The notes below the pieces were generated by a model that did no database searches, had not been told where the DNA came from, and worked only from the letters and a program-made list of their open reading frames with translations. Below, in pieces: positions 6,176 to 58,789 of a stretch of DNA of 64,000 nt. Source of the DNA: a virus (taxonomy: Duplodnaviria; Heunggongvirae; Uroviricota; Caudoviricetes; Crassvirales); IMG/VR virus record IMGVR_UViG_3300008267_000092, positions 24,022 through 88,021 of that record; one strand, written 5' to 3'. Numbering within the stretch: position 1 is the first letter of the stretch; each line of letters begins with the position of its first letter. Position numbers and translations under genes: made by a program.

Positions 6176-6177
6176 TT

Positions 6178-6681
6178 ATGGAAAATAATAAGAAAAAATT
6201 ATTAAACGATAAAGTTATTAAAACTTTAAATTACAGAATACAACAAGAAGAATATTCTTCAAGAATTTACGAACAATTATCATTATGGTTAAACAATAAA
6301 GGATATTTAAATTTTGCAGAGTTGTTTAAGAAATATTCAGAAGAAGAATTAGTACATGCTAAATTTTCTAAAGATTTTCTATTAGATTATGGTATTACAC
6401 CTTGTCTTGAAGCGTTACCTTCTCCTGAAATGGAAATAGAGTCATTATTAGACGTTTTAGAAGCAGCTTATGAACATGAGCTATTAGTTACTCAACAATG
6501 TGAAGAACTTGCCTCTATGGCTTTAAAAGAAGGTAATCACGTGTTATATCAATTAGCATTAAAGTACTGTGCTGAACAACAAGAAGAGATTGGTAAAGTT
6601 ATTACAAATTTAGATATTTATAAACTAAGTACTGACATGTTGGTTATTGACCATTATGTAGGTGAAAAACTGTTAGGATAA
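6178..6681 (+). CDS. ftn: ferritin (FtnA-like non-heme ferritin, ferroxidase-centre residues conserved)
   Basis: 167 aa; collinear similarity to E. coli FtnA from memory (LNYRIQQEEYSS / SEEELVHAKF / YEHELLVTQQCEELA / AEQQEE), with the ferroxidase-centre positions (E, ExxH, E, QxxE) occupied. Confidence 0.8.
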   Translation: MENNKKKLLNDKVIKTLNYRIQQEEYSSRIYEQLSLWLNNKGYLNFAELFKKYSEEELVHAKFSKDFLLDYGITPCLEALPSPEMEIESLLDVLEAAYEHELLVTQQCEELASMALKEGNHVLYQLALKYCAEQQEEIGKVITNLDIYKLSTDMLVIDHYVGEKLLG

Positions 6682-6682
6682 T

Positions 6683-29575: not shown

Positions 29576-29702
29576 ATTCGTCTATACAATCTTGCATTTT
29601 ACAAGTGAATTGATGCCAACCTATTTTGCAAAGTAATCTACCAATAAAACTACGCCTAACATCAGGTTGCTTCAATGGCTTGGTTACGTTTTCTTTTGAC
29701 AT
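29502..29702 (-). CDS. small zinc-ribbon protein
   Basis: C-x-W-H...CSRCGKNY. Confidence 0.3.
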   Translation of the reverse strand: MSKENVTKPLKQPDVRRSFIGRLLCKIGWHQFTCKMQDCIDEFGFIPNDGRMPKVSKCSRCGKNYA

Positions 29703-29778
29703 ATTTTCGTTTATTTAAAGTTTTTAATTCTAATTAAGTTTATCGGTTAAAGTCGCCACTAAAGCAACCTGCGTACCG

Positions 29779-30015
29779 TTATAAGATAGCCACACAATCA
29801 CGTAGATAATGAGAATTGCAATTATTTACACCTTCTAATTCTGAAATACAATACCCTTTTTCGTCTGAAAAATAAGCAGACAACTGACCATCGTCAAAAG
29901 ATAAAAAACCTATTTTCCCATCAGGCATTTTTAACTTTGTTGTTTCAAAAAATATTTCAATTCCGTTTTTATCTAATTCTTTTGTTGATATTCCATACAT
30001 AATTGATTTTCTCAT
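29779..30015 (-). CDS. hypothetical protein
   Basis: 78 aa ORF. Confidence 0.35.
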   Translation of the reverse strand: MRKSIMYGISTKELDKNGIEIFFETTKLKMPDGKIGFLSFDDGQLSAYFSDEKGYCISELEGVNNCNSHYLRDCVAIL

Positions 30016-30142
30016 AATAATTCTAATTTAAAGCCATCATATAACAAGTGTTTGCCATCAGTGGCAGGCTTGGGTTTTATTTAATTTTAATTCGGAAATA
30101 TCTAAACTTCCTTTGTATTTGTTGACTTTGTTGTTTTATTTT

Positions 30143-30166
30143 GTCCCCGACATCAATGTCGGGGAC
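30143..30166. terminator. GC-rich perfect hairpin GTCCCCGACAT-caa-TGTCGGGGAC
   Basis: 11-bp perfect stem in AT-rich intergenic region just downstream of 30183..30467 gene. Confidence 0.5.
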
Positions 30167-30182
30167 ATTTAAGTTGTAAATA

Positions 30183-30467: not shown

Positions 30468-30638
30468 ATTAAAAGTATTTAGTTTTGTGCATTGATTTGT
30501 AGGCTACTTCGTTATCGTAAATGCTGCTATATCTATTTTACCTGTATTACCAAGTTCATATTCTTTTAAAAATTCTTCTGCTGTTGGTATTGTGTTTAAA
30601 TTTTCCATAACTTCTATTTGTTTTAAATTAATATTTAG

Positions 30639-30713
30639 TGGTCAGAATGGGACTCGAACCCATGTAACAGTCTTCCATGCAGTGTCTGTACCTTGCCACT
30701 CAGTCACCTGACC
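30639..30713 (-). tRNA. tRNA-like gene (75 nt), canonical acceptor stem and T-arm but non-canonical D/anticodon arms; possible tRNA-Pro(UGG)-derived pseudogene
   Basis: reverse complement GGTCAGG...ATGGGTTCGAGTCCCATTCTGACCA: 7-bp acceptor helix, perfect T-stem with TTCGAGT loop; anticodon stem does not pair cleanly in my manual fold. Confidence 0.4.
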
Positions 30714-31075
30714 ATTTTCTTCATGTGAGGACACTTATTTATTAGCACCTTTCTCTTATTAAAATACCTTGTTTACTGCTCAGTGTGGTATCAACTGTAA
30801 TAACTAATAAGAGTTAAGGTCACGTAGTTAATTCGCAGAAAGTTTCTAATGTTTCAGTTCTACCTTATAACTACTTGCTGAGACTCATTTGTGTTGTGTG
30901 GAACCATTCATTATCCACCTTAACTCGCATATTCCTTTCTCAAGGGAACAACACATCTAGGATTTCTCCATTACTACCAGAATTGACTTGTTACAGCCTA
31001 TCTTCATAATACCCTGTAATTCAGGATTAGTATCTTTATGTAAATTTAAAAGTTTTGCTTTTATTAAACTACCGA

Positions 31076-31102
31076 CCCACTAAGTAGACCCACTAAGTAG
31101 AC
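31076..31102. repeat. tandem direct repeat 2x CCCACTAAGTAGAC
   Basis: exact 13-14 nt unit repeated head-to-tail, followed by hairpin + T7 at 31106-31129. Confidence 0.6.
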
Positions 31103-31105
31103 CAG

Positions 31106-31129
31106 GTGAGATTAGAACTCACTTTTTTT
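31106..31129 (+). terminator. short hairpin GTGAG-attagaa-CTCAC followed by TTTTTTT
   Basis: 5-bp stem + T-run. Confidence 0.35.
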
Positions 31130-31204
31130 AAATTTACAAACCATCAATGTTTAGGGTATATTTTAACTATTTTACATTTTTTACAAACGGTAAAGTACTC
31201 CCAT

Positions 31205-31360
31205 TTACTTTTTATTTTTAAATATTAATTTTGCTGAGATATACATCCCAAATATAAAAATTCCTATTCCTAACCATGCGTCGATATGGTTAAAACTCCA
31301 GATTGACGTAAATATCAAAAATACTGTTGTTAATGTAATTTTTGTAAATTTATTTACCAT
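31205..31360 (-). CDS. small membrane protein (51 aa), paralog of 32414-32566
   Basis: MVNKFTKITLTTVFLIFTSIWSFNHIDAWLGIGIFIFGMYISAKLIFKNKK; shares IW(S/I)FNH(I/V)DAW(L/V)GIG..(F/V)..G.YISAKL core with the second copy; unlisted (<60 aa). Confidence 0.55.
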   Translation of the reverse strand: MVNKFTKITLTTVFLIFTSIWSFNHIDAWLGIGIFIFGMYISAKLIFKNKK

Positions 31361-31378
31361 AATTTATTTATTATTAAA

Positions 31379-31584
31379 AACCAACACATCCATCAAGATT
31401 GGGATAAGTTAGAAGTTTTACGTTCAATATTAGTAGGAATTATTGAGCACTGCTCCACCATACTTTTCACTTATCTTACTCAATAAACATAACACTTCTT
31501 GTAGCGTTAGTGATAGTGAGCTACAGCATTTTATCTCACAGAGCTGTTATCACTTTGTCTACCTTTCTATGTGTTGGTTTATTT
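31379..31584 (-). repeat. conserved ~200-bp intergenic element, copy 1, bounded by 11-bp inverted repeat AACCAACACAT / ATGTGTTGGTT
   Basis: blocks CCAACACATCCATCAAGATTGGGATA, AACATAACACTTCTTG, TCTATGTGTTGGTTTATTTT shared with copy 2. Confidence 0.6.
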
Positions 31585-31585
31585 T

Positions 31586-37293: not shown

Positions 37294-38199
37294 TTAAAAA
37301 AGTGACAGTTGATTAAAATTATTTACTTCGTCTATTATTTCTTGTGTTTTACGAATATAATATGAATAATTTATTTGATATTCGTCAAATGGTTTTTCTT
37401 TATACTCGTTAAAGATTTCAACACCTTCTCCCACATTAACATGTTGCATTGTACCCATACCATGCTTTTGTTTGAATAAATATGGTTTATTCTTGCTGAA
37501 ATAATACCTATTAAGTTGTTGCTGAATTTCGTTATTCCAATATACCACATAGTCTTTACTTATTTTATTAGATTTACAATAGTCATAGATGTGTAGGTTG
37601 TGTTTATCAGGATTTGATATATATTCATTAGGGGGTATCCCTCTAATATAATATTCATTCAATGCCTTAGATATAATTAATTCATTACATGAATCACCTA
37701 ATGGTATTTCTCTTTTATTGTCCTCATTAAAAGGTAATTTGAAAAAACCTTTACGTTTTATTTTACCACCACCTGTTTCACAAATATAATTATTGACATT
37801 TTTATAAATGATTTTATTATAATTCTCATGTTCAAATTCAAGATTAAATTTTCGAGCTGTAATATCTAAAATATCTTGATATTGTTTTAACATATGCATA
37901 GGTACTAACACTTCAATTCCGTCAGTATTTGCAGAGACAACTTGCCATTTGTTAATAATACAAATTTCAATACATTTAGTTAAAAATATTTGACCTATTA
38001 ATCGTAATCTCATTGCACCTTCAGGATAATATAACCAGCTATGGGAATTATCCAATAAACCTGATGTTGAATTAAGAATAAGTTTAAGAAATGAATCTTT
38101 AGCTTTATTTTTATTACGTTTAGCCTCAATACGTTCTGTTTTTACTTGTCTGTATCGATCTAACACTTCAGGTTGTCTAATACATCCATAATTTAACAT
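37294..38199 (-). CDS. family-B-like DNA polymerase, C-terminal fragment (motifs B and C)
   Basis: KLILNSTSGLL (KxxxNSxYG-like motif B), SANTDGIEVL (DTD motif C). Confidence 0.5.
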   Translation of the reverse strand: MLNYGCIRQPEVLDRYRQVKTERIEAKRNKNKAKDSFLKLILNSTSGLLDNSHSWLYYPEGAMRLRLIGQIFLTKCIEICIINKWQVVSANTDGIEVLVPMHMLKQYQDILDITARKFNLEFEHENYNKIIYKNVNNYICETGGGKIKRKGFFKLPFNEDNKREIPLGDSCNELIISKALNEYYIRGIPPNEYISNPDKHNLHIYDYCKSNKISKDYVVYWNNEIQQQLNRYYFSKNKPYLFKQKHGMGTMQHVNVGEGVEIFNEYKEKPFDEYQINYSYYIRKTQEIIDEVNNFNQLSLF

Positions 38200-38225
38200 T
38201 ATATTTGGATATAGTGCTTATATCC

Positions 38226-38966
38226 TTAATCCAGTATGTTTCCATCTGGCTGGACTATATCATTATTTAAAACTTTAACCCATTTAAAACCATACATTGA
38301 TGGTTTTTCACCACTACAACACGCGTAAATATTATGTACTTTATAGGTGGGATTATCAATTATAATATCCTTTACCTTTTTCCATTCTTTTATTAGTGTT
38401 GTACCGTTTTTAGAATATTGTAAAATTGTGTATTTTGTGTGAATATCCGATACCTTTTTCTTCATTTGTTCTTTTATTTCTGGATTTTCTTTCCAAAATT
38501 TAGATGAAGATTTACTTATTTTAATTCTTTCTTCAGGATTTTCATATCTTTTTTTATGTGAAATACTCATTTTAATACGTGTATTTTCATGACAAATCAT
38601 ATTTGTAGAAGAATCTCTTCTCAAATTGTATCCTAATTTAGAATCTGTTGTTTTGTAAAAATCTATCCAAAACAATTCTTTTTCTTTAATTATTGATTCA
38701 AAATCTTTAATATTTTTATCAATAATTTCAAGTACAAAATATTCAAATTTTTCTTTTCCGTATTTCCACCACGCATTTATAAAATATTGATTTTCTCTTT
38801 TGGGGTCTTTAGCGTTAAGTCCTCCAATATGATTATATATTCGTTGTCTAATATTTATAGATTTTCCAATATATTTTTTATCCGTTTCAATATTTCTAAT
38901 GCAGTAAATACCACAAAGACCCTCATGTAATTTATTTGTTTTCATATAAAATTTTATTTTATACAA
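38226..38966 (-). CDS. GIY-YIG homing endonuclease
   Basis: GIYCIRNIETDKKYIGKSINIRQRIYNH (GIY..YIG..R..H). Confidence 0.8.
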   Translation of the reverse strand: MYKIKFYMKTNKLHEGLCGIYCIRNIETDKKYIGKSINIRQRIYNHIGGLNAKDPKRENQYFINAWWKYGKEKFEYFVLEIIDKNIKDFESIIKEKELFWIDFYKTTDSKLGYNLRRDSSTNMICHENTRIKMSISHKKRYENPEERIKISKSSSKFWKENPEIKEQMKKKVSDIHTKYTILQYSKNGTTLIKEWKKVKDIIIDNPTYKVHNIYACCSGEKPSMYGFKWVKVLNNDIVQPDGNILD

Positions 38967-39222
38967 AGATACATTATTTTGAGGTAATATCCTAATTAAT
39001 TAGGGTAAATTTTACATAAATTTTATATTACTATAGCGTTTATGTGTTTTAAATACTTCCTGTTTAGTCTCTGAACCTTTATCCCATTAGGACACTTGGC
39101 TGCGGATTGACCAATCTTTATCTTTTTTACTATACTGAGGTAATTATTCTCACCACATAGTATGTTACCACCTATGTTTAGTAGATAAAGCTCTAAGGTT
39201 ATTCCCGTCAATTTAAGAAGTT
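38967..39222 (-). ncRNA. GC-richer structured segment, candidate group I intron core upstream of the GIY-YIG ORF
   Basis: GGACACTTGGCTGCGGATTGACC, GCGCCACTTTAACGC; the 70-aa ORF 39023..39235 here is probably not coding. Confidence 0.35.
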
Positions 39223-40194
39223 TTAATTGCGCCACTTTAACGCAATATCTGAGGTCATAATTTGTAAATCATTATCTGTATAATATTGTTCATTTTCATT
39301 AACAGAATGAAGACCTCCAATACCATATGTTAATCTAATATTTGTATTATTGTAATTAACTAAAAGTTCTTTACTGAATGTATCTTTACCATTTAATATT
39401 TCTAACCATAAATTTTGAAATATTGGTAATTTAAATTCAGGGTCAAAACCTTTTAAGATTTCATTTAAATACAATGTAGGTTTTTCATATCTTGTATTTC
39501 TGACTTCATTTATCTTTCTAGATGTTATCTTACAATAATCTGATAATAAAGCTTCTGATGCAATTTTTGGTGCATCCCAAGACCAACAATTTAAATTATA
39601 CTCTTTAATAATATTACCTCTTAAACGAATTTCTCCCTCCATTTCTAAAGTTAATAATTCTAATATACCTAAGTCGTGGGTATAATTATAATATCTTAAC
39701 TTAGGGAGATCTTCTAAAGATAATATAGAGTTTGGTTTAAATGGTAATTCTTGTACAACAGGATAACCTAATTGAATACCTAAAGATTTTAAACTTATCT
39801 TTTTAGAAATTCTTAACATTTTTGACCAATATGCAAACAAATCTATATCAATCCATTTAGATTTCATATATTTAATTTGTTTAACATCTTCGTCAAAAAT
39901 GTCATCTATTATTTTATCTGAGAAATATTTTAATTCTAGACATATATTTGAATATCCTAAGTACTTCAAATTTTCATAATTTTTAACTAAATACTTGACA
40001 ACCATGTTATCGTAATGTAATCCGTTAAAACTTATTAAAAATCCAGTATAACTTTTAAAAAATCCATATATTTTATCTATATCGTTTCTTTCTTCAGATA
40101 TTTCATAAAATGTAATTTCTTTAGTGACGAAATCTTTTATACCAACACAGAAATAATTTTTGTAACATTCTATATCGTATAGTTTTTTATTCAT
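39223..40194 (-). CDS. DNA polymerase N-terminal fragment with 3'-5' exonuclease motifs
   Basis: YDIECYKNYF (Exo I DxE), FNGLHYDNMVV (Exo II N..YD). Confidence 0.55.
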   Translation of the reverse strand: MNKKLYDIECYKNYFCVGIKDFVTKEITFYEISEERNDIDKIYGFFKSYTGFLISFNGLHYDNMVVKYLVKNYENLKYLGYSNICLELKYFSDKIIDDIFDEDVKQIKYMKSKWIDIDLFAYWSKMLRISKKISLKSLGIQLGYPVVQELPFKPNSILSLEDLPKLRYYNYTHDLGILELLTLEMEGEIRLRGNIIKEYNLNCWSWDAPKIASEALLSDYCKITSRKINEVRNTRYEKPTLYLNEILKGFDPEFKLPIFQNLWLEILNGKDTFSKELLVNYNNTNIRLTYGIGGLHSVNENEQYYTDNDLQIMTSDIALKWRN

Positions 40195-41730: not shown

Positions 41731-41788
41731 CGTCTCCAAACATCATAGGATATACCCTGAGTTTGGAGACGGTGGGATTCGAACCCAC
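41731..41788 (-). pseudogene. tRNA 3'-half remnant (T-arm + 3' acceptor strand) fused to an 11-bp hairpin in the 5' leader of the HNH gene
   Basis: reverse complement GTGGGTTCGAATCCCAC-CGTCTCCA...; CGTCTCCAAAC pairs with downstream GTTTGGAGACG; no D/anticodon arm upstream. Confidence 0.5.
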
Positions 41789-42207
41789 GTCGATCAATGC
41801 GTTTGTTATATAATTTTATACAGCTTTTTGTAGTATTTAATCTTTAATGTCCCTTAAACACTACTAAATGTGGACAGCTATGGCAATGTTATACTCTAGC
41901 CAGTGTTGAGTTTGATTTGGGATTAGCGCACACGCGAATTCTAATTTACCAAATCATTTTAAACTATGCTGCCATTAATACTTCTTCTTTAGAAGAGTTA
42001 ATCAATGAAAAAACTTTAGCCATATTGGCTTTTGCTTGATTTTTGCCGTTTAAAATATTCACCTTAGTTTACAGTTATCTCTCTGGCTGAATTATATAAT
42101 TACTGACACAACCTCAAAGCCAGTCGTCCCCTTATTAATTGTTTAAAGTACAATCATAAACTTATTATTAGAAGGTGACACTTAATGTAATCACCTTCTA
42201 TAATTTA

Positions 42208-43888: not shown

Positions 43889-44377
43889 TTATGATAATAA
43901 TAATCTGATATCATATGTAAAATGTTTTACAATTGGTTGTAAATTTATTTCCACATTTACAGTTGTTTGTTCGTGTGATGTAGGTACATCCTGTGCAATA
44001 ATAAATTCATATATTTCATGACTTGTACCACCAAGACCTGTTATCATACCATTTGAAATGTCTGTACGATAAAAATTATTTTCACCTTGTTTGTTGGTGT
44101 ACATTAGATAAATTTTCTTTTTTAATTTTATCGCAATTTCTAATTCTTTTTTTACACCTGAAGGTAACATATTTATAGGTTGTATCCAATTATTTGTAAC
44201 ACCTGTAAAAATAAATATATCACAATTTTCAACACGACTTTCATTGTAAGGAAAACCTTGTCTCCACATATATGTAGAAATTAAATTATTTGTAGAATTA
44301 TCTAATTTATATACACAATGATTATAAGATTTTTCCCTGTCAACCATTGCGACAGGGAAGCTGAAATAGACATTCAT
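43889..44377 (-). CDS. hypothetical protein
   Basis: 162 aa ORF. Confidence 0.4.
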   Translation of the reverse strand: MNVYFSFPVAMVDREKSYNHCVYKLDNSTNNLISTYMWRQGFPYNESRVENCDIFIFTGVTNNWIQPINMLPSGVKKELEIAIKLKKKIYLMYTNKQGENNFYRTDISNGMITGLGGTSHEIYEFIIAQDVPTSHEQTTVNVEINLQPIVKHFTYDIRLLLS

Positions 44378-44700
44378 TACTTTTTATCTTTAAAGTACTT
44401 GTTATACGAATCTTGTTTGATTTTTAATTCTCTTTCAAGTAATTCTTTTTCGTATTCTAATTGAATTATTTGTTCAAATCTTTTTTGACATTCGGTCATT
44501 GTTAGAGCTTGTTGTCCTTGATTTAGATTTGTGTTTAAAGAGAAGTCTTTAGCTTCTAAAATCTGATCGTTTTTTCTTTCTACTTCTTCTTCAAGACCAT
44601 CTAATAATGTTTTTTGAAGATTACGTTTAATACGTTTGAAAAAGTCTTCAGCTCTTTCTGATACAGATTGTGATCTCGATAAAATGTTTTTTGCTTCCAT
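44377..44700 (-). CDS. coiled-coil hypothetical protein
   Basis: 107 aa, heptad-rich. Confidence 0.4.
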   Translation of the reverse strand: MEAKNILSRSQSVSERAEDFFKRIKRNLQKTLLDGLEEEVERKNDQILEAKDFSLNTNLNQGQQALTMTECQKRFEQIIQLEYEKELLERELKIKQDSYNKYFKDKK

Positions 44701-45720
44701 GATTATTTATTTGTTAAATTGTTTTTGTTTATAATTATAATTAAATGAATTAGTTAATATGTAATGAATAATAAATAAAATACATTATAAGATTTACTTA
44801 ATAGTTATATCTTTCAAATGTTCTTGATATGGAATTTATGCAATTTATATCAACTCATAATGTATTTTAATTTTAATATAATCAGTCAACCCAGCATAAC
44901 CTGTAATTGACTGACTAAAGTGTTGTTATTAATCCTCTGTTAAAGGATTATCATGAATACAATCTTCTGAATTGTATACCATGCATATTTCACAATAATA
45001 ATCATTTTCCATAATTTTGTTATTTAGTTAGTTTAATAATAATGGTAATATATACATTGAATCTAATAGTGCACATATTGCAAAACAATATGTTTTTTGT
45101 AAAATAGACATCTTCTCGTCTAAAGCTGGTATTACACAGATTGTAATCATGATTTTGTTATTTAGTCAGTTAATAATTTGTTTTAAAAATAAACTCTACA
45201 AGGTTGCACCTTGAATTACACCAGATATAACTATACAGACTGTATTGTGTTACCAGCAATTGGATAGAGTTTTGTTAAACATATAACATCTCCAGGAGAA
45301 ATACTACACTACTAGACTTAATCTAGGTTCAAAAGAGTGCTGATTATATGTTTTATTGTAAATAATTAGTATCTAAATACTATTTGTAGGATGAAATATG
45401 CAATAATACACACACCCAATGCAATCTGATTATTCTGTTTTGAAAGTAATTGTTTTAACATAATAGCTATATTTAATTATTGAATGATTAATTAATTGTG
45501 TGAGAGTAATGGTTGAAATGTTGTGTGGAGTTTTAACACAACATATACAACATCACTTTTATTGTGACAACATATAACTTATAAAGTGACAAACACTAAT
45601 ATTTTTTTGTGAGACGTTTTACATAGGTACGCTAAACATACGCAAACAAACTAACGTAATGTAAATAACATAACGATAAACGCAACCAAAATAACTCAAT
45701 ATATTACGTACTAAAAGTCA

Positions 45721-45748
45721 AAAAATATAAGGCACCCGAAGGTGCCTA
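45721..45748 (-). terminator. rho-independent terminator GGCACC-cgaa-GGTGCC + U-tract (minus orientation)
   Basis: perfect 6-bp GC stem, tetraloop, reverse complement followed by TTATATTTTTT, immediately after stop of 45754..46215. Confidence 0.7.
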
Positions 45749-45753
45749 TATAT

Positions 45754-46215
45754 CTATGCTTCAGCCTTAACAGTACTTGCTTTAGCAAGAATGTCTGTAA
45801 GACTACGTTTCTTCGCAACAACTGCTTTAGCAGGAGTGTACGATTTAGGCATAAGAACCTCTGTCTCAACACCCTCAATGTCAACAGTAACCATATGACA
45901 TACAAGTGTTCCAGGAACACCTTTAGCTAAATCCTGCGCTTTGTCAATAGACATACGCATAGTAAGCTTATGGTTAGAAGCAGACTCGAAATCTTCATTC
46001 TTGAAGTCCTCTACAGATTGTTGAAAACCATATTCACTAACAGCTTTGAAGCTAACAATAGCAAATTCAGTACCGTCTTCCCAAACAAATGGTTCTCCGT
46101 CTCCGTCAGTATAACCAACGTGAGTTACTTCAATACCTTTATAAGGCACCATAGCTTGTTCAATTACAGGTTTAGATTCAATGATTCTTAACGCAATTTC
46201 TTGAGTAATTTCCAT
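45754..46215 (-). CDS. GC-richer, probably highly expressed early protein with Lys/Ala-rich C-terminal tail (possible DNA-binding)
   Basis: 153 aa; local GC clearly above genome background; strong terminator; C-terminal PAKAVVAKKRSLTDILAKASTVKAEA. Confidence 0.5.
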   Translation of the reverse strand: MEITQEIALRIIESKPVIEQAMVPYKGIEVTHVGYTDGDGEPFVWEDGTEFAIVSFKAVSEYGFQQSVEDFKNEDFESASNHKLTMRMSIDKAQDLAKGVPGTLVCHMVTVDIEGVETEVLMPKSYTPAKAVVAKKRSLTDILAKASTVKAEA

Positions 46216-46743
46216 AATATAACAGCTTTACGTCCTGCCGACGTTGTTTGTATTGGAAGTGCTGAGTCATCGCTACATTCCAAGATTAGACATATTTTAG
46301 GTATCTCGTAGCAATAAGCCACGGGTATATCCCAAAATTTAAAAAGGGTCGGGGCATGATCTTGGGTTATCCCACACTCACATCAACAATAAAAATTTTC
46401 AAAAATTTTAAAAAAAAATATTTTTCAATTCATCCATTTTAAGACACTATTTATACCTCAGATAATAACTAATACCAGACATGCTATTACAGTGTCTTAA
46501 ATCAAACAAAACACATCAAATTTTAGATGTTGCAAAGTTACGTAACATCGTTCAGGTTATATAATACAAAATATCCACCTAAACTAATTAACAAATCATT
46601 TTCTGCTAAGAAGAAAAGAAAGTAACCAAAGAAAAGAAGAATATATATAATATATTCTCCAATTGCGCGTACACGCGCGCGTATTTATATAGCTTTTATG
46701 TGTCAATAAAAAATATTTTAAAAATAACTGTTAAAAAATTAGG

Positions 46744-46770
46744 AATTGTCATTTATTTTTCGTATCTTTG
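46744..46770 (+). promoter_or_regulatory. Bacteroidetes-type promoter (weaker -33, TATCTTTG -7)
   Basis: aTTG...19 nt...TATCTTTG. Confidence 0.4.
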
Positions 46771-46890
46771 TAATGTTATAAACAACACGACAAAAACACA
46801 ACAGAGTCGGACCGAGAGGCATAAAGGTTTTGGCAGGGAGGTGTATTATAAAAGAGGAGGGTTACCTTTAGTAAAATAATTAAAAATAAA

Positions 46891-46922
46891 TTTGCATATT
46901 TTAAAAATATTTCGTATATTTG
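46891..46922 (+). promoter_or_regulatory. Bacteroidetes sigma-A-type promoter TTTG-N20-TATATTTG upstream of first + strand early gene
   Basis: TTTGCATAT...TTCGTATATTTGTA; matches -33 TTTG / -7 TAnnTTTG consensus; ATG at 46946. Confidence 0.55.
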
Positions 46923-46945
46923 TATAAAATAAAAATAACAACTTT

Positions 46946-47134
46946 ATGACAAGACCTAAGTTTAATATTGGTGAAAAAGTGTATCATAATACACCAGACT
47001 CCGATGAAGCTATTGTAGTAGATATACTTTATTCACATCTACTAGATAAAACAACATACATTGTATCTACAGGATTTGGTGCTGAATTTGAATGTATGGA
47101 ACACGAATTAACTGATGAAAAATTATTATTTTAA
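46946..47134 (+). CDS. hypothetical early protein
   Basis: 62 aa ORF after promoter. Confidence 0.4.
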   Translation: MTRPKFNIGEKVYHNTPDSDEAIVVDILYSHLLDKTTYIVSTGFGAEFECMEHELTDEKLLF

Positions 47135-47139
47135 ATAAC

Positions 47140-47364
47140 ATGGATAATGAAACAAATGGGGTTTGGTTTGAACCTACAATAATTTATAGTAACGATCAAC
47201 CTGCAGGATTTAAAGAGTGGTCTAAAGGAATCATCTATAATAAATACAAAATCACATTACCAGATGGTACATCTATGAATGCTAAAATGTTCTTAGATCT
47301 ACAACAAAGATTTGAATCAGGTAATTATACAACATATTTGGTTAACAGATATGTTGAACAATAA
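47140..47364 (+). CDS. hypothetical early protein
   Basis: 74 aa ORF. Confidence 0.4.
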   Translation: MDNETNGVWFEPTIIYSNDQPAGFKEWSKGIIYNKYKITLPDGTSMNAKMFLDLQQRFESGNYTTYLVNRYVEQ

Positions 47365-47391
47365 AATAATTTAAAAAAAAGTTACTAAAAG

Positions 47392-47422
47392 TTTGCATAT
47401 GTCAAATATTATTCGTATCTTT
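47392..47422 (+). promoter_or_regulatory. Bacteroidetes sigma-A-type promoter TTTG-N19-TATCTTTG
   Basis: GTTTGCATATG...ATTCGTATCTTTGTA, same extended motif as 46891 copy; ATG at 47449. Confidence 0.55.
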
Positions 47423-47448
47423 GTAGAGAATTTAAAATACATATAAAA

Positions 47449-47715
47449 ATGGTAGATACGATACACGAAGTAATAAGAGAAGATTTATTATCAAATCAAA
47501 AAGAATTATTCAATTTATATAATTATTACACACATAAATATAGAAGTAACGATAGATTATTAGACATTAATGTTGGGTTATTTATTAATGATAAACAACA
47601 ATTTGTAGCTCAAATTTATGTTGCTGATAAACATACTAAAATAAGAGAACAATTAATTCTGGATGAAAACCACACAGTTAAAGATACTAATATTATAGTT
47701 AAAAGATATGAATAA
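47449..47715 (+). CDS. hypothetical protein
   Basis: 88 aa ORF. Confidence 0.4.
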   Translation: MVDTIHEVIREDLLSNQKELFNLYNYYTHKYRSNDRLLDINVGLFINDKQQFVAQIYVADKHTKIREQLILDENHTVKDTNIIVKRYE

Positions 47716-48001
47716 AGATAAACACATTCACGTAAGTTCAACTGTCAATATCCCATGTAGCAATGGGATATTAGATGAAACAGTTGACTTTTATAAAAGG
47801 ACATTATTGTTTGATGCCGTCCGTAATGAAATTAATCTGGTCAAGTCAAAACAGAGTTACCCTCTAGATAACAGATCAGATGTAGAATTAACACTAGATG
47901 TAGTAATTGTATCTAAAGCTAGATACAATAGGTTAATTGAATTAGAAAAAGTTAATGAGCACACACACGAACAATTTAAAGAACTTAAAGTAAATGAGTA
48001 G
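47708..48001 (+). CDS. hypothetical protein
   Basis: 97 aa ORF. Confidence 0.4.
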   Translation: MNKDKHIHVSSTVNIPCSNGILDETVDFYKRTLLFDAVRNEINLVKSKQSYPLDNRSDVELTLDVVIVSKARYNRLIELEKVNEHTHEQFKELKVNE

Positions 48002-48254
48002 TTTTAATACATCCTCTCGTAAAAAAAGTCTTATGTCTGATGATCGTAAGATTAAAAAACACGTTACAGCTTTTTACAAAATCATAGATGAAATTGAAGC
48101 TTTAGCTGTTAAAATTAAAGAATTAAATCTTGAAGTTACAGAAGAAAATGTAAAAGACATTGCTTCAGATATTATGGGTAGAGATTTAGATTCAATGGAA
48201 ATCTTTTTATTAATGGGTAAATTAGAATCACATGTTGAACAAAGTGACAATTAA
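47994..48254 (+). CDS. hypothetical protein
   Basis: 86 aa ORF. Confidence 0.4.
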   Translation: MSSFNTSSRKKSLMSDDRKIKKHVTAFYKIIDEIEALAVKIKELNLEVTEENVKDIASDIMGRDLDSMEIFLLMGKLESHVEQSDN

Positions 48255-48507
48255 AAATGTATCTGCTTTTCTAGAAGGTAATTCTAAACAAATATTAGCA
48301 GGAATGGGATTACAACCTAAACATATTGAAGAGCAGGTTATGTACAGAGCATCCGTTTGTTCAGATTGTATGCAGGTAGGTAAATGTAAGATGTGTGGAT
48401 GCTCACTACCTGGTAAATTACATGTTGCAAAATCATGTAATCCTGAAAGATTTCCAGATTTAATGAGTAGTAAAGAATGGGAAGAATTTAAAACAAAATT
48501 AAAATAA
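48232..48507 (+). CDS. Cys-rich zinc-binding protein
   Basis: CSDCMQVGKCKMCGC...C; co-directional with operon (antisense ORF 48228..48530 rejected). Confidence 0.4.
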   Translation: MLNKVTIKNVSAFLEGNSKQILAGMGLQPKHIEEQVMYRASVCSDCMQVGKCKMCGCSLPGKLHVAKSCNPERFPDLMSSKEWEEFKTKLK

Positions 48508-48737
48508 TGATTAAAGAATATATAATACATAATGAACCTTTAAATGTTATTTTAGATAAGATTGCTACGTTTATTAAACATGTAACTAAGTTTGATGAAT
48601 TACATGGTAATTATAATTACGAAGTATCAATATCTAAAAATAGAGATTTATGGAGTGCAAAATTAAAAATTGACAATGAAACGAAACATGACACTAAAAT
48701 ATCTAAAACAATTACTGAAGCACCTTCAGTATTATAA
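48507..48737 (+). CDS. hypothetical protein
   Basis: 76 aa ORF. Confidence 0.35.
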   Translation: MIKEYIIHNEPLNVILDKIATFIKHVTKFDELHGNYNYEVSISKNRDLWSAKLKIDNETKHDTKISKTITEAPSVL

Positions 48738-48990
48738 TGATATGGCACCTTTCCCTGTATATGATACAGAATATGTTGAGGAGGTGAAAACTAAAATAAA
48801 AGAAATGGAAGAAAAAAGTAATGAATACGATGAGTTACCTGTAGTAGCTTGTAGACACTGTAAAAGTTTACATGTTGTATCTGATGAGTTAGACAATTCA
48901 ATATGCATGCGTTGTGGTTCTGTAAATGAATTACAGGAGTTTGAAAATATTTATAAATATAAAGAATTTAAAGATGGCGAGAATTCCTAA
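48670..48990 (+). CDS. zinc-ribbon protein
   Basis: CRHCKS...CMRCGS. Confidence 0.4.
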   Translation: MTMKRNMTLKYLKQLLKHLQYYNDMAPFPVYDTEYVEEVKTKIKEMEEKSNEYDELPVVACRHCKSLHVVSDELDNSICMRCGSVNELQEFENIYKYKEFKDGENS

Positions 48991-49639
48991 TACCGAGAAG
49001 AGAACATTAAAGACTGAGCCAAAATTAATGGTTGATCTTAATTTTGAACAGAAAGAATTTGTAGAATTGTTTTATCAGTACGATGTTAATTTCTTATTAG
49101 GAGATTTTGGATCAGGTAAGTCATTAGCTGCTGTACATACAGCATTAAAAGCTTTTAGAAAAAAGCAATTTAATAATATTTGGATTACTAGACCTATGAT
49201 TAAAAATAATCTAGGAGCTTTACCTGGGGAGATTGAAGATAAATTAAGTCCTTACATATTCCCAATTATTCAAAATTTAGAAGTTTGTCAAGGTAAGGAA
49301 ATGACTGAAAAGATGCAGAAAGAAGGTTTAATTAAGATTATGCCAATAGAGGTTGCCAAAGGTGTAACATTTATGAAATCTGTAGTTATTGTTGATGAAT
49401 TTCAAGATATGGATTACGAAGATTTTAGAACAATTTTAACTAGATTGGGTAATGGAAGTAAAATGATATTTTGTGGATCCACCCAACAAGTAGCAAGACA
49501 AATTGGTAAAAACAGTTGTATTGAAAGAGTTGAAACTTTAAAAAATTCTAATCTTGTAGGTTTTAAAACACTAACTTCAAATCATAGAAATCCAATATTA
49601 ACTGAAATAATTAAATATTTAGAAACTAAAAATGAATAA
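48926..49639 (+). CDS. phoH: PhoH-like P-loop ATPase
   Basis: LLGDFGSGKS (Walker A), VVIVDEFQDMD (Walker B), FCGSTQQV. Confidence 0.55.
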   Translation: MNYRSLKIFINIKNLKMARIPNTEKRTLKTEPKLMVDLNFEQKEFVELFYQYDVNFLLGDFGSGKSLAAVHTALKAFRKKQFNNIWITRPMIKNNLGALPGEIEDKLSPYIFPIIQNLEVCQGKEMTEKMQKEGLIKIMPIEVAKGVTFMKSVVIVDEFQDMDYEDFRTILTRLGNGSKMIFCGSTQQVARQIGKNSCIERVETLKNSNLVGFKTLTSNHRNPILTEIIKYLETKNE

Positions 49640-50027
49640 TACTAAAATTGCGAATCTTAATGTTAAATTAAAAGATTTATTCTTTAAATGGTTGGATGTA
49701 ACTAAAGCGTGGCATAAACTAAATAATCAACAACAGCAAGTATTAGCACTTTTATTATATTATCATTATCGATACAAAAAAGATATAACAAATAATAAAG
49801 TTCTTTGGAGACTTTTATTTGATTACGATACAAAAATTAAAATAAAAGAAGATCCTGTATTTGAAAAAGAATTGAGTGATAGTGCTTTAAATAATATTTT
49901 TTCAATATTAAGAAAAAAGAAGATTATTATAGATGGTGAAATATCACCATTGTATATTCCCGAGTTAGCATCTAAAAGTAATAATTTTAAAATCATTTTT
50001 AATTTTAACATCATAGACAATGACTAA
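49632..50027 (+). CDS. hypothetical protein
   Basis: 131 aa ORF. Confidence 0.4.
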   Translation: MNNTKIANLNVKLKDLFFKWLDVTKAWHKLNNQQQQVLALLLYYHYRYKKDITNNKVLWRLLFDYDTKIKIKEDPVFEKELSDSALNNIFSILRKKKIIIDGEISPLYIPELASKSNNFKIIFNFNIIDND

Positions 50028-50295
50028 ATCAGACAATGATAAAATTAAAAAACTTATACATCGTATAGGGTTAAAGTATAATCTTAGAGATGAAGATGTA
50101 AATAAAATAATAACTTCACCATACATATATGTTAGACAGATTATCACAAATATGGAAATTGAAGAGAATATAACAGAAGACGAATTTAACAAATTAAAAA
50201 CAAATTTTATATTTCCAAATATTGGAAAATTATATATTAAATACGGTACTGTATTGAGGTACCAAAATCAAAAAAAACATGATAGAACAAAGTAA
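50020..50295 (+). CDS. hypothetical protein
   Basis: 91 aa ORF. Confidence 0.4.
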   Translation: MTKSDNDKIKKLIHRIGLKYNLRDEDVNKIITSPYIYVRQIITNMEIEENITEDEFNKLKTNFIFPNIGKLYIKYGTVLRYQNQKKHDRTK

Positions 50296-50644
50296 TTTTA
50301 CGCAGGAAGAAGTATTAAAAATCGCTAAAGATTTTAACATTGAACCAATGTTCAATAAAGTGATTATCACATTAAACAAATTAGAAGAAGATGGTAATCT
50401 TGTATTATCTGAAAACATGTTGTCTGAAGAACAATATATTGTATCTAAGGGTGATACGGTTCGAGGTTTAGAAATTGGTCAAAAGGTAATTATTGATATT
50501 GAAAGAATGATGATTACTGTAAAATCAGAATCTGTAAATGCTTATGAGGATGTAAAACAAATTAAAATTGAACCTATATTGTATAATCATACAATGTTTG
50601 CAATCATTGAAGATAGATTAATTAAAGCTAAATATAAAAACTAA
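50279..50644 (+). CDS. hypothetical protein
   Basis: 121 aa ORF. Confidence 0.4.
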   Translation: MIEQSNFTQEEVLKIAKDFNIEPMFNKVIITLNKLEEDGNLVLSENMLSEEQYIVSKGDTVRGLEIGQKVIIDIERMMITVKSESVNAYEDVKQIKIEPILYNHTMFAIIEDRLIKAKYKN

Positions 50645-50645
50645 T

Positions 50646-50921
50646 ATGGAATTATTTTTACACATTATTGTAGGTCTAGCAATTGTAGGTCTTATTTATG
50701 AATATATACGATTACTTAAAGGTTATGAAAATCTTGCAGAAGTATTTGTAGATTCTGAAGCGGAATATTTTTATAACGAAAAAGAACTTCAGAAAACAAT
50801 TGAAGAATTAAAACTTGAAATTGAATTACTTAAAACAGAGTCTGAAAAACAAACTCTTGAAGTAACACCTAAACCTGTAAGAAAGAAACCCGTTTCTAAA
50901 AAAATACCAAACGTAGAATAA
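50646..50921 (+). CDS. small membrane/coiled-coil protein
   Basis: N-terminal TM helix IIVGLAIVGLIY, coiled coil. Confidence 0.4.
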   Translation: MELFLHIIVGLAIVGLIYEYIRLLKGYENLAEVFVDSEAEYFYNEKELQKTIEELKLEIELLKTESEKQTLEVTPKPVRKKPVSKKIPNVE

Positions 50922-51181
50922 TGAAATTATTTGAAATGCGTGACTTCAATCTCCAAGTGATTCCAGAAGCTTGGGGATTGTTGCCGTTTAAGGCAATACT
51001 TAAACGAGATAAAAACCGTAATAAAGAAACTGCATTTAAGGAAATGTTATTTATATATTTTTATTGTGATATACGATCAGATTATGTTTATATAACAGAC
51101 AATGTAGTTAGAACTACAGAAATTAAAAAAGATATTGGACTTTCTGAAGACTGGAAAATAGATGATGTAATCAATCGTTAA
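50921..51181 (+). CDS. hypothetical protein
   Basis: 86 aa ORF. Confidence 0.4.
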   Translation: MKLFEMRDFNLQVIPEAWGLLPFKAILKRDKNRNKETAFKEMLFIYFYCDIRSDYVYITDNVVRTTEIKKDIGLSEDWKIDDVINR

Positions 51182-51430
51182 AAGCTGCGGATGATATATC
51201 TAAATATCTTGAAAAAACAGATGCATTATTAGATGAGAGAACGATTAATGGTGGTACTGTTACAACATTGGCTACAATTACAGCATCGCTTAAATCTGTC
51301 CCAGTAATTATGCGAGATCTTAAAGCAGCATATAAAGAAGTTTTAAGTGAACAAAAAGAAATGGAAGGTAGAACTAAAGGAAGTAAAACGATGGGACTTT
51401 TTGAGGATGGTCTTGGTGAAATAGGATAAT

Positions 51431-52897
51431 ATGGAAGAAATATATTTTAAAGAGGAAGCTAGAAATAAACTTTTAAGTGGTATAAATAAATTACACGATG
51501 CTGTAGCATCTACAATGGGACCAAATGGTAAGACGGTTATTATAAGTGATGTGTATGGTAAACCTAAAGTAACTAAAGATGGTGTATCTGTTGCAAGAGC
51601 GATTTCATTTAAAGATCCTGTTGAAAATATGGGTGCAGAATTAATCAAAGAAGTAGCAGAACTTACTGTAGATATCGCGGGAGATGGTACTACTACAGCT
51701 ACAGTTTTAGCTACTGCTTTTATTAACAATTTAATAACCTTTGAATCTAAAGACATTAATAAAGCCTTTGATGAAATAATACCTAAAGTATTAGAACAAT
51801 TAAAAATAAATTCTAGAACATTGGAACGTGATAATATTAAACACGTTGCTACAATTTCTGCAAACAACGATATAACTATAGGTGAGGTTATTCAAAACGC
51901 ATATAACCATTCAGATATTATTAAAATTGAAGAATCAACATCTAATAGTGATATATTGGAATTAGTTGAGGGTATGCAGTTAGATGTATCTTATTTATCA
52001 AAAGCATTTGTAAATATTGATCGTAAAGCAGAATGTGAATTGACTAATCCACATGTATTAATTATAGATGGTAAACTTGAGAACTTAAAAGTTTTTGAAC
52101 AATTATTAAACACTGTTGCTGCAAACAACGAATCATTATTAATTATAACAGAACATGTTTCAGAACAAGTATTAAGAATGCTTGAAACAAATGCATTAAG
52201 CGGTAATATTAAACTATGTGTAATTAAATCACCTGGATTTGGACAACATAGAAAAGATTTACTGAAGGATATTGCAAAGTTTACACAATCTACAATTATA
52301 ACAGATTTAAGCAAACCTTATACGTTAAGTATTGCAGGTAAACTGCAGTCTGTAAGAGTTACTAAAAATAATTCTATCTTGGTTAAGGATTCATCAATAG
52401 ATGTTACAGAAGCAATTGCAGATTTAAATGAATTGTCTAAATCTATAGATCTATCTGAACACGATAAGGATTTGATTATCCAACGAAGAGATAGACTTAC
52501 AGGTAAGATATCAATCATTAAAGTTGGAGGTGTTTCTGAGATTGAGATGAAAGAACGTAAAGATAGATATGATGATGCGGTATTAGCTGTAGCCTGTGCA
52601 TTAGAAGAAGGAATTGTACAAGGTGCGGGTTTAGCATTATATCACAGTATTCAAAATGTTTATGATGTAAAATATGATGAAAAAACACCATATCATTTTA
52701 TAATGAAAAGTCTACTTTCACCATATGATAACATTTGTAAAAATGGGACATGTATTCCTGTAATGAGTAATATGTTTGATCAAAACATTATAGATCCACT
52801 TAAAGTTACAAGATGTGCATTAGAGAATGCAGTATCTGTAGCTAAAACAATATTATCAACAGACACAATTATTTTAAATGAGCGTCAATGGAGTTAA
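51431..52897 (+). CDS. groEL: GroEL/Cpn60-family chaperonin (488 aa, lacks C-terminal GGM tail)
   Basis: ARNKLLSGINKLHDAVASTMGPNGKTV...VTKDGVSVARAI...GDGTTTATVLA collinear with GroEL N-terminus/ATP-binding loop. Confidence 0.85.
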   Translation: MEEIYFKEEARNKLLSGINKLHDAVASTMGPNGKTVIISDVYGKPKVTKDGVSVARAISFKDPVENMGAELIKEVAELTVDIAGDGTTTATVLATAFINNLITFESKDINKAFDEIIPKVLEQLKINSRTLERDNIKHVATISANNDITIGEVIQNAYNHSDIIKIEESTSNSDILELVEGMQLDVSYLSKAFVNIDRKAECELTNPHVLIIDGKLENLKVFEQLLNTVAANNESLLIITEHVSEQVLRMLETNALSGNIKLCVIKSPGFGQHRKDLLKDIAKFTQSTIITDLSKPYTLSIAGKLQSVRVTKNNSILVKDSSIDVTEAIADLNELSKSIDLSEHDKDLIIQRRDRLTGKISIIKVGGVSEIEMKERKDRYDDAVLAVACALEEGIVQGAGLALYHSIQNVYDVKYDEKTPYHFIMKSLLSPYDNICKNGTCIPVMSNMFDQNIIDPLKVTRCALENAVSVAKTILSTDTIILNERQWS

Positions 52898-57612: not shown

Positions 57613-57660
57613 TAGTGACAATCTCAATTTAAAAGGTTGTCACTAATTAATTTGCTTTTA
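57613..57660 (+). terminator. rho-independent terminator
   Basis: TTAGTGACAA...TTGTCACTAA stem followed by T-rich tract. Confidence 0.5.
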
Positions 57661-57709
57661 AATAAAAAAAACATTATATTTGCAAACTTTATAACATAGG
57701 GAGAAAATT

Positions 57710-58789
57710 ATGGAAGATGAAAACGATTTAATGTCAATTTTTGGTTCTAATCAAGAACTTAATTTTGACGGTGATTTTACAAATACACTTGATGAAGATC
57801 AAGTAGATGAAGGTGATCAAGATGACACCTTAGATATGAATAAACAACCTGTCGAGGAAGAAGAAGATTCTCCAGAGGACGTAGATGGGGATGAAGACAA
57901 CACTGATGAGGGTGACGATTCCTCTGATGAAAATTCTCCCAACCTATATTCTTCCATCGCAGATGTTCTTTTTGAACAAGGAATTATACCCTCATTGGAG
58001 TCTTCACAAGAAATTAAATCCGTTGACGATTTTGTTGACGTGTTTAAAAAAGAAATAGGTGTTCAAGCAGATCGAAAACTTGAAGAGTATTTAAACAATT
58101 TAGATTTAGAAAAAATTGCTACATCTCGCAAAACACAACTTGAATTAAATAGTATTGACGAAGATTATTTAAAAGATAATTTGGAAATCGCTAAAGATAT
58201 TATTTTTAGAGATTATTTAAATCAAGGTTTGTCAGAAGATCGCGCTCGTAAAATGTTACGAAAAACAATAGATCTAGGTGAAGATACTGTTTTAGAGGAT
58301 GCCCTGGAGTCTGTTCAAAGTTTAAAAGAGTTTGAAGCTAAACAAGAAGAAGTTGAAAGAGCTCGTTATACTCAGTCATTAGAAGAGCAACGAAAACATC
58401 AGGAACAGTTAGATACAACTATAAAGAATTACATTTATAATTCTAATGAAATTGTTAAAGGTATTCCTAATACTAAAGCCTTACAAGAAAAAGTCTTTAG
58501 AACAATGACTGAAGTTGTTTCTAAGAATCCTCAAACAGGAGAATTAGAAAATAAATTAATGAAAGAACGTTCAGCTAATCCTATTGAGTTTGATACAAAA
58601 ATGTATTACCTCTACGAATTAACAAATGGTTTTTCTGATTTAAGTAAAATTTCAAACACTGTAAATTCAAAAGCTGTTAAAAAATTAGAAACAGTTTTAC
58701 GTAAAACAAAGTTTGAAGATAATGGTACTCCAGGGTACATGCAGGATCCAAATAGTTACAATGGTTTTGGGTCAGAATTAGTTTTATAA
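57710..58789 (+). CDS. highly acidic protein (scaffolding-like?)
   Basis: N-terminal DEDQVDEGDQDD...EEEDSPEDVDGDEDNTDEGDDSSDE; position between portal and putative capsid gene. Confidence 0.35.
   Translation: MEDENDLMSIFGSNQELNFDGDFTNTLDEDQVDEGDQDDTLDMNKQPVEEEEDSPEDVDGDEDNTDEGDDSSDENSPNLYSSIADVLFEQGIIPSLESSQEIKSVDDFVDVFKKEIGVQADRKLEEYLNNLDLEKIATSRKTQLELNSIDEDYLKDNLEIAKDIIFRDYLNQGLSEDRARKMLRKTIDLGEDTVLEDALESVQSLKEFEAKQEEVERARYTQSLEEQRKHQEQLDTTIKNYIYNSNEIVKGIPNTKALQEKVFRTMTEVVSKNPQTGELENKLMKERSANPIEFDTKMYYLYELTNGFSDLSKISNTVNSKAVKKLETVLRKTKFEDNGTPGYMQDPNSYNGFGSELVL

Follow-up and report, generated by a model that had tools for sequence, protein, structure and literature searches.

The window analysed here, a stretch of 64,000 nucleotides from an uncultured crAss-like phage, carries three closely spaced promoter cassettes (P1, P2, and P3; Table 1) that are very probably used by the host RNA polymerase with its primary sigma factor (sigma-A type), in the manner of the middle promoters of Cellulophaga phage phi14:2, and that head the rightward gene block. 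The sequence, position, orientation, statistics, homology, and synteny of these sites were determined directly, and from them we infer their transcription starts, their dependence on the host polymerase, and their middle timing. Read as a transcription map of the phage, this would confine the host-polymerase promoters to the side of the chaperonin, terminase, and portal genes and leave the replication side without host-type promoters, as expected if an injected virion RNA polymerase reads it.

The window is assigned to a crAss-like phage (Crassvirales) with phi14:2 as its nearest cultured relative. Its portal protein showed 57% identity to that of phi14:2, and the remaining matches of this protein were crAss-like phages of Bacteroides and Flavobacterium. 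A megablast search of positions 44000-52000 against phage records gave no match; relatives were reached via proteins, and the chaperonin-anchored loci compared below were drawn from viral metagenomes. The minus-strand block, containing ribonucleotide reductase, a split DNA polymerase, primase, helicases, and an annealing protein, is separated by a divergent gap from a plus-strand block that is syntenic with the leftward block g110 to g093 of phi14:2, chaperonin, terminase, and portal included. At the left end of the window, the gp66 homolog aligned with residues 877-2086 of phi14:2 gp66 (35% identity, E = 1e-125). This ORF has about 800 further residues beyond the aligned part, and its residues 1537-2024 matched the Dda-like helicase family, an extension that the gp66 of phi14:2 does not have; it may encode a polymerase-helicase fusion.

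All three cassettes contain the -7 box TAnnTTTG, and P1 and P2 also the -33 box TTTG with a 20-nt gap, a combination that agrees with the consensus quoted in PMC7366714 and PMC9723704 for the Bacteroidota primary sigma factor sigma-ABfr; P3 reads TTAG at -33. Two near-identical cassettes at 46891 and 47392 had been proposed in a first-pass annotation of the region, and both the sequences and the 20-nt spacing were found as described. The gap between their blocks, given as 12-14 nt, is actually 11 nt in both, and the ATG codons, placed about 25 nt beyond each cassette, lie close to that, at 21 nt (46946) and 23 nt (47449). The third -7 copy listed there at 46763 is also present and, moreover, forms part of a whole cassette in which TTAG replaces TTTG. 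The TTAG of P3 and of several sites in relatives is a departure from the published consensus, and its frequency among relatives identifies it as a common variant and no defect. The phage cassettes also differ from the consensus in a GTA extension on either side of the -7 box and in the addition of a spacer block, TGTCA(A/T)AT, and an upstream A/T block.

Taken as a whole, the cassette spans about 60 nt and comprises four parts, namely an upstream A/T-rich block, roughly (A)ATAATTTAAAAATAA, a -33 block, TT(T/A)G(C/G)A(T/A)AT, a spacer block, (A)TGTCA(A/T)(A/T)T, and a -7 block, GTAT(A/C)TTTGTA, with transcription expected to start about 5 nt past the TTTG of the -7 box. The -7 boxes of P1 and P2 stand in sense orientation, 31 and 33 nt before their respective ATGs. 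Since the -7 box occupies positions -12 to -5 in flavobacteria (Flavobacterium psychrophilum; PMC9723704), the starts were predicted near 46775 for P3, near 46927 for P1 (leader of ~19 nt), and near 47428 for P2 (leader of ~21 nt); the leaders of P1 and P2 are A-rich and have no Shine-Dalgarno sequence. P1 would serve the ORFs at 46946 and 47140, P2 would serve the genes from 47449 onward, and from P3 a conserved non-coding segment of ~100 nt would be transcribed. Both ORFs behind P1 are coding, as their mismatches with relative L105 are concentrated at third codon positions (13/12/25 and 8/8/20 mismatches per codon position for 46946-47134 and 47140-47364, respectively). Searches of the small ORFs against Pfam and PHROG gave no match.

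Table 1. Features of the 64-kb window, ordered by position.
Feature	Positions	Strand	Sequence	Remarks
Plus-strand genes	5-10804	+		
gp66 (virion RNA polymerase) homolog	5-6175	+		DFDID motif present
Replication module (minus-strand block)	11025-46215	-		41 minus-strand genes
Divergent gap	46216-46945			730 nt
P3 promoter	46739-46772	+	TTAGGAATTGTCATTTATTTTTCGTATCTTTGTA	-33-like TTAG 46739-46742; -7 TATCTTTG 46763-46770
P3 inner blocks		+	middle TGTCATTT; TTCGTATCTTTGTA	TTCGTATCTTTGTA at 46759-46772
Conserved non-coding segment	46773-46885	+	cores GAGTCGGACCGAGAGGCATAAAGGT and AGAGGAGGGTTACCTTT	cores at 46804-46828 and 46853-46869
P1 promoter	46891-46924	+	TTTGCATATTTTAAAAATATTTCGTATATTTGTA	-33 TTTG 46891-46894; -7 TATATTTG 46915-46922
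P1 blocks	46891-46899 and 46911-46924	+	TTTGCATAT, 11 nt, TTCGTATATTTGTA	
Plus-strand block	46946 to window end	+		
ORF, 62 aa	46946-47134	+		behind P1 (putative); from ORF list
ORF, 74 aa	47140-47364	+		behind P1 (putative); from ORF list
P2 promoter	47392-47425	+	TTTGCATATGTCAAATATTATTCGTATCTTTGTA	-33 TTTG 47392-47395; -7 TATCTTTG 47416-47423
P2 blocks	47392-47400 and 47412-47425	+	TTTGCATAT, 11 nt, TTCGTATCTTTGTA	
ORF, 88 aa	47449-47715	+		first behind P2; opens overlapping run of small ORFs toward PhoH-like and chaperonin genes
PhoH-like gene	48926-49639	+		
Chaperonin gene	51431-52897	+		
Terminase large subunit	starts 52888	+		
Portal gene	starts 55215	+		
Fourth Bacteroidota-type promoter	57651-57684	+	TTTGCTTTTAAATAAAAAAAACATTATATTTGCA	between portal gene and g092 homolog; generic match
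phi14:2 g092 homolog	57710-58789	+		

Three exact copies of the 14-mer TTCGTAT(A/C)TTTGTA fall inside 670 bp, and the rest of the 64 kb gave no match with 0 or 1 mismatch. A weight matrix built solely from the sequences upstream of phi14:2 genes g070, g075, g108, and g110 ranked P2 first (31.0 bits), P1 second (26.4 bits), and P3 third (21.3 bits) over the 64 kb, the best score among 50 shuffles being 18.4 bits. Genome-wide enrichment of the generic pattern TTTG-N19-21-TAnnTTTG had been anticipated in the first-pass annotation, with its absence counting against the promoters; within the 64-kb window no enrichment was found (4 matches versus 2.95 expected), yet homology, position, and orientation, rather than frequency, mark the sites as real. 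With just three or four such promoters in 64 kb, window-wide enrichment is not demonstrable. Within 80 nt before gene starts, the -7 box alone likewise showed no enrichment (7 sense versus 14 antisense). Three of the four generic matches (46891, 47392, and 57651) lie 31-35 nt upstream of plus-strand start codons, and a -7 box at this distance was detected for none of the 41 minus-strand genes, despite several long non-coding gaps in the minus-strand block, as would be expected if the virion polymerase transcribes it. The generic match at 57651 scored just 9.9 bits on the middle-promoter matrix and has a counterpart at the syntenic place in phi14:2 (L001 2722-2754, minus strand), and likewise in L104, L127, and L129.

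A fourth matrix match, at 38995-38962 on the minus strand (TTAGGATATTACCTCAAAATAATGTATCTTTGTA), reached 15.1 bits, inside the range of the shuffles, and was not counted. It precedes an ORF for a GIY-YIG homing endonuclease (38226-38966, minus strand) located between the two ORFs (39223-40194 and 37294-38199) of the split DNA polymerase (37294-40194, minus strand). A GIY-YIG ORF is also found directly behind a perfect cassette in locus L151.

Among 29 chaperonin-anchored relatives, all 59 matrix matches of at least 17 bits were on the gene strand. Groups of one to four cassettes lay 3.4-7.6 kb before the chaperonin gene, and some relatives had one further cassette about 6 kb downstream of it. 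Selection of sites by TAnnTTTGTA alone recovered the upstream A/T block, TTtGgAta, and TgTcAAaTA from the 80 sites on the gene strand, and no upstream signal from the 29 on the other strand. In the close relative L105 (~86% DNA identity), the three cassettes and the two small ORFs are all retained, with -33 boxes TTTGGA and TTAGGA (its P1 reads TTTGGAATT...TATCTTTGTA, and its P2 has TTAG at -33), and P3 is conserved in L104, L105, and L128. These data bear on the idea that the repeats are not promoters and serve instead as protein-binding sites, e.g., iterons of a replication origin or packaging signals at the GC-skew switch. The three copies fall inside 700 bp in the region of the cumulative GC skew minimum, as such sites might, but the strict orientation in the relatives, the fixed distance to start codons, the presence of similar sites far off (before the g092 homolog and homing-endonuclease genes), and the match to promoter sites mapped by primer extension make this idea exceedingly improbable.

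The same sequence was found in bacterial chromosomes. The exact 18-mer TTTGCATATGTCAAATAT was present in 28 viral loci, most of them with a -7 box at the same spacing, and in 73 loci of bacterial genomes, 39 of which had the -7 box at the same spacing, 37 of these 39 being Bacteroidales. The other 34 bacterial loci, without a -7 box, belong mostly to other phyla and look like chance matches. Downstream of the Bacteroidales sites there were genes for cytidine deaminase, PheS, an RsmA-type methylase (rRNA adenine dimethylase), a phosphorylase, a transposase, and a pyruvate/indolepyruvate-type oxidoreductase. Since the extended motif also precedes Bacteroidales housekeeping genes, it counts as a promoter form of the host, and its spacer is no phage-specific operator. 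The host phylum, which the first-pass annotation had deduced from the promoters, is thus borne out by the Bacteroidales loci as well as by membership in the Crassvirales; the bacteria with exact matches are Bacteroidales from gut and rumen, whereas the probable host is a flavobacterium, and the low G+C of the window (~28%) together with the Cellulophaga relative suggest the class Flavobacteriia.

The closest counterparts of the cassettes were found in phi14:2 itself. The transcription study of this phage (bioRxiv 10.1101/2020.03.07.982082) places middle promoters upstream of g070, g075, g108, and g110 and describes in them an "extended tripartite motif", to which the four blocks of our cassette would correspond. 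In the phi14:2 record, the sites upstream of g108 and g110 read TTTGCATATGTCAAATATTTTACGTAGTTTTGTA and TTTGGATATCTCAGAATTAAGTATTATCTTTGTA, respectively; P2 is identical to the former at 24 of 24 nt, and P3 shows 89% identity over 38 nt to L001 13399-13436, which in phi14:2 lies between g110 and g109 on the opposite strand. No homology to g110, g109, and g108 was detectable in the first three small ORFs of the window, so the correspondence to this gene group rests on the promoters and on synteny. On this evidence, the cassettes correspond to the phi14:2 middle promoters upstream of g110 and g108, a class already known experimentally, and their match to sites where host-polymerase promoters were mapped by primer extension upholds the proposal that they depend on the host RNA polymerase. 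They share with the promoters of Drobysheva et al., which include a related consensus for middle/late promoters in crAss-like phages, the block structure, the spacing, and the syntenic position at the head of the chaperonin-terminase-portal block, as well as the site before the g092 homolog, and differ in the small ORFs downstream and in the orientation of the P3 unit, which is inverted in phi14:2.

The comparison also qualifies the earlier statement that the promoters are of the Bacteroidota sigma-A rather than of the E. coli type. The -33 TTTG/-7 TAnnTTTG geometry supports its first half, whereas "rather than" is overstated: P1 has a weak sigma-70 match (TTTGCA-N18-TATATT, 9/12), and the phi14:2 study reports that the E. 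coli sigma-70 holoenzyme transcribed the g070 and g075 promoters in vitro, reproducing their in vivo 5' ends (bioRxiv 10.1101/2020.03.07.982082). The scan for sigma-70 sites (TTGACA-N16-18-TATAAT, at least 9/12 matches) was itself non-discriminating in this AT-rich DNA, with 8 such sites in the region versus 13 expected.

The same study describes the early genes of phi14:2 as the replication module, transcribed by injected gp66 in a rifampicin-resistant manner and without a common upstream motif, and its middle and late transcripts as rifampicin-sensitive (bioRxiv 10.1101/2020.03.07.982082). The encoded gp66 homolog, and the location of the cassettes in a divergent region where early transcription must begin too, raise the alternative that they are promoters of the virion-packaged polymerase and not of the host enzyme. 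This is very improbable, given that the early transcripts of phi14:2 are reported to lack a common motif and its middle class, g108 and g110 included, to be rifampicin-sensitive, that every site is directed away from the replication module, and that the motif is the form found in host chromosomal promoters.

The small genes behind the cassettes had been labelled as early, a label that homology contradicts, as g108 and g110 are classed as middle in the phi14:2 study, where the early class is the replication module. Nor is there a strand change between the small ORFs and the chaperonin, terminase, and portal genes, into which the plus-strand block runs on and whose functions are middle or late; the crAss001 study and the Crassvirales review (PMC10136315) put terminase and structural genes in a late, host-polymerase class. 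The opposing view, in which the same host-polymerase promoters drive immediate-early genes upon DNA entry, draws on their apparent completeness for the host sigma-A polymerase, on the occurrence of the same sequence before Bacteroidales housekeeping genes, so that no phage factor would seem to be needed, and on the small size and unknown function of the genes, a typical early-gene trait. In addition, the earliest phi14:2 sample was taken 40 min after infection (bioRxiv 10.1101/2020.03.07.982082), which may have been too late to catch host-driven expression at the very start. Weighed against the homology, the common strand, and the late class of structural genes, we regard this view as improbable.

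Under the preferred, middle-class reading, an early phase in which the injected virion RNA polymerase reads the oppositely oriented replication module would be followed, by analogy with phi14:2, by firing of the host sigma-A holoenzyme at P1-P3 once the virion-polymerase phase is under way. The start sites, the timing, and the rifampicin sensitivity are here all carried over from a relative whose portal protein is just 57% identical. The delay of host-type promoters that need no phage factor could possibly be due to late DNA entry or to an early phage factor. In the Crassvirales, small genes of unknown function behind strong host-type promoters are not necessarily early.

A related alternative keeps the host polymerase and lets a phage factor, acting on the spacer TGTCA(A/T)AT or on the upstream A/T block, set the timing or strength of the promoters. 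The conservation of these blocks well past the published -33/-7 consensus would agree with it, and the delayed expression in phi14:2 from constitutive-looking promoters wants some explanation, but some ordinary chromosomal genes of Bacteroidales carry the identical spacer block in their promoters, the E. coli sigma-70 holoenzyme by itself is reported to have reproduced the starts seen in vivo at two phi14:2 promoters, and no candidate factor was identified, so that such control appears unlikely.

Returning to the cassettes as plain host promoters, we tentatively propose, with a good measure of doubt, that the spacer and upstream A/T blocks make up an extra element for the Bacteroidota RNA polymerase and, independently, that the P3 unit is a mobile small-RNA gene. 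The candidate recognition element, (A)TGTCA(A/T)AT (including TGTCAAAT), lies about 20 nt upstream of the predicted start. If this element is real, the canonical -33/-7 description would be incomplete, as the spacer is common to Bacteroidales housekeeping promoters and aquatic crAss-like phages. Found from Bacteroidales chromosomes to marine phages, the ~60-nt cassette is also a candidate strong, portable promoter for engineering in Bacteroidota.

Coliphage N4 uses an injected virion RNA polymerase for its early genes and the host polymerase for its late genes. The phage analysed here resembles N4 in having two polymerases, oppositely oriented modules, and host-type promoters confined to the structural side, and differs from it in that its virion polymerase comes from an unrelated family (two-barrel gp66 type). 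Hairpin-type early promoters are not known for it. The Crassvirales review (PMC10136315) likewise draws the analogy with N4.

We offer the segment behind P3 as a lead, being a candidate for a non-coding RNA of the phage. By nhmmer, it was found only in the window, L104/L105, L128, and phi14:2 (66-88 bits), and neither a scan of viral contigs with its 3' block nor nhmmer over all fetched loci gave additional homologs. The motif AGAGGA(A/G)GG(G/T)TACCTTT lies 75-95 nt past a P3-type promoter in the window and in phi14:2, and the unit is also present in L104/L105 and L128. A conserved ORF in the segment was rejected, as the window and phi14:2 do not agree in their reading frames. An Rfam search of 46200-47500 with E up to 10 gave nothing relevant, the predicted fold of the segment was no better than those of shuffles (z = -1.2), and the four homologs yielded just 9 consensus pairs with no convincing covariation. 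The next element after the segment is P1 in the window and L105 and directly an ORF in L128; the segment may consequently represent a long 5' leader or, alternatively, a small RNA about 100 nt in length. P3 and the purine-rich segment of about 100 nt behind it may form a small-RNA gene complete in itself, which has undergone inversion and transfer among related phages.

The divergent gap also holds a G+C-rich hairpin (TGCGCGTACACGCGCGCGTA) followed by a T-rich tail (46664-46683, plus strand). It lies near the GC-skew minimum, some 55 nt before P3, is partly conserved in L105, and resembles a terminator at a place where no terminator is expected.

Other possible RNAs were observed in the replication module. 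A tmRNA gene (41763-42131, minus strand; Rfam RF00023, 55.3 bits versus a gathering score of 47) lies inside it and is the sole Rfam family reaching its gathering score in the window; its tag peptide, as given by ARAGORN, is unusual (GKNQAKANMAKVFSLINSSKEEVLMAA). This tmRNA may be related to the highly transcribed non-coding intergenic RNAs of the phi14:2 early region. In addition, no ORF reaching 80 aa was seen in long stretches of the minus-strand block (30468-31585, 44701-45753, and 29576-30182), where non-coding RNA genes may lie, as has been reported between g004 and g006 in phi14:2.

Finally, RNA-like elements were also seen behind cassettes of the relatives. A different short hairpin, typically GCAACTAGTTTAGGATnnAGTTGC, with variants in some loci, is found immediately downstream of one cassette in many relatives (L106, L107, L111, L114-L117, L121, L122, L124-L126, L129, and L130; e.g., L116 1019-1042) and is absent from the window; this hairpin may represent a further small RNA that the phage group expresses from such a promoter. 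In L111 (4285-4370), a cassette is followed by a tRNA-like sequence (…GTTCGAATCC…), in keeping with a published remark that tRNA genes of crAss-like phages are frequently preceded by such motifs.
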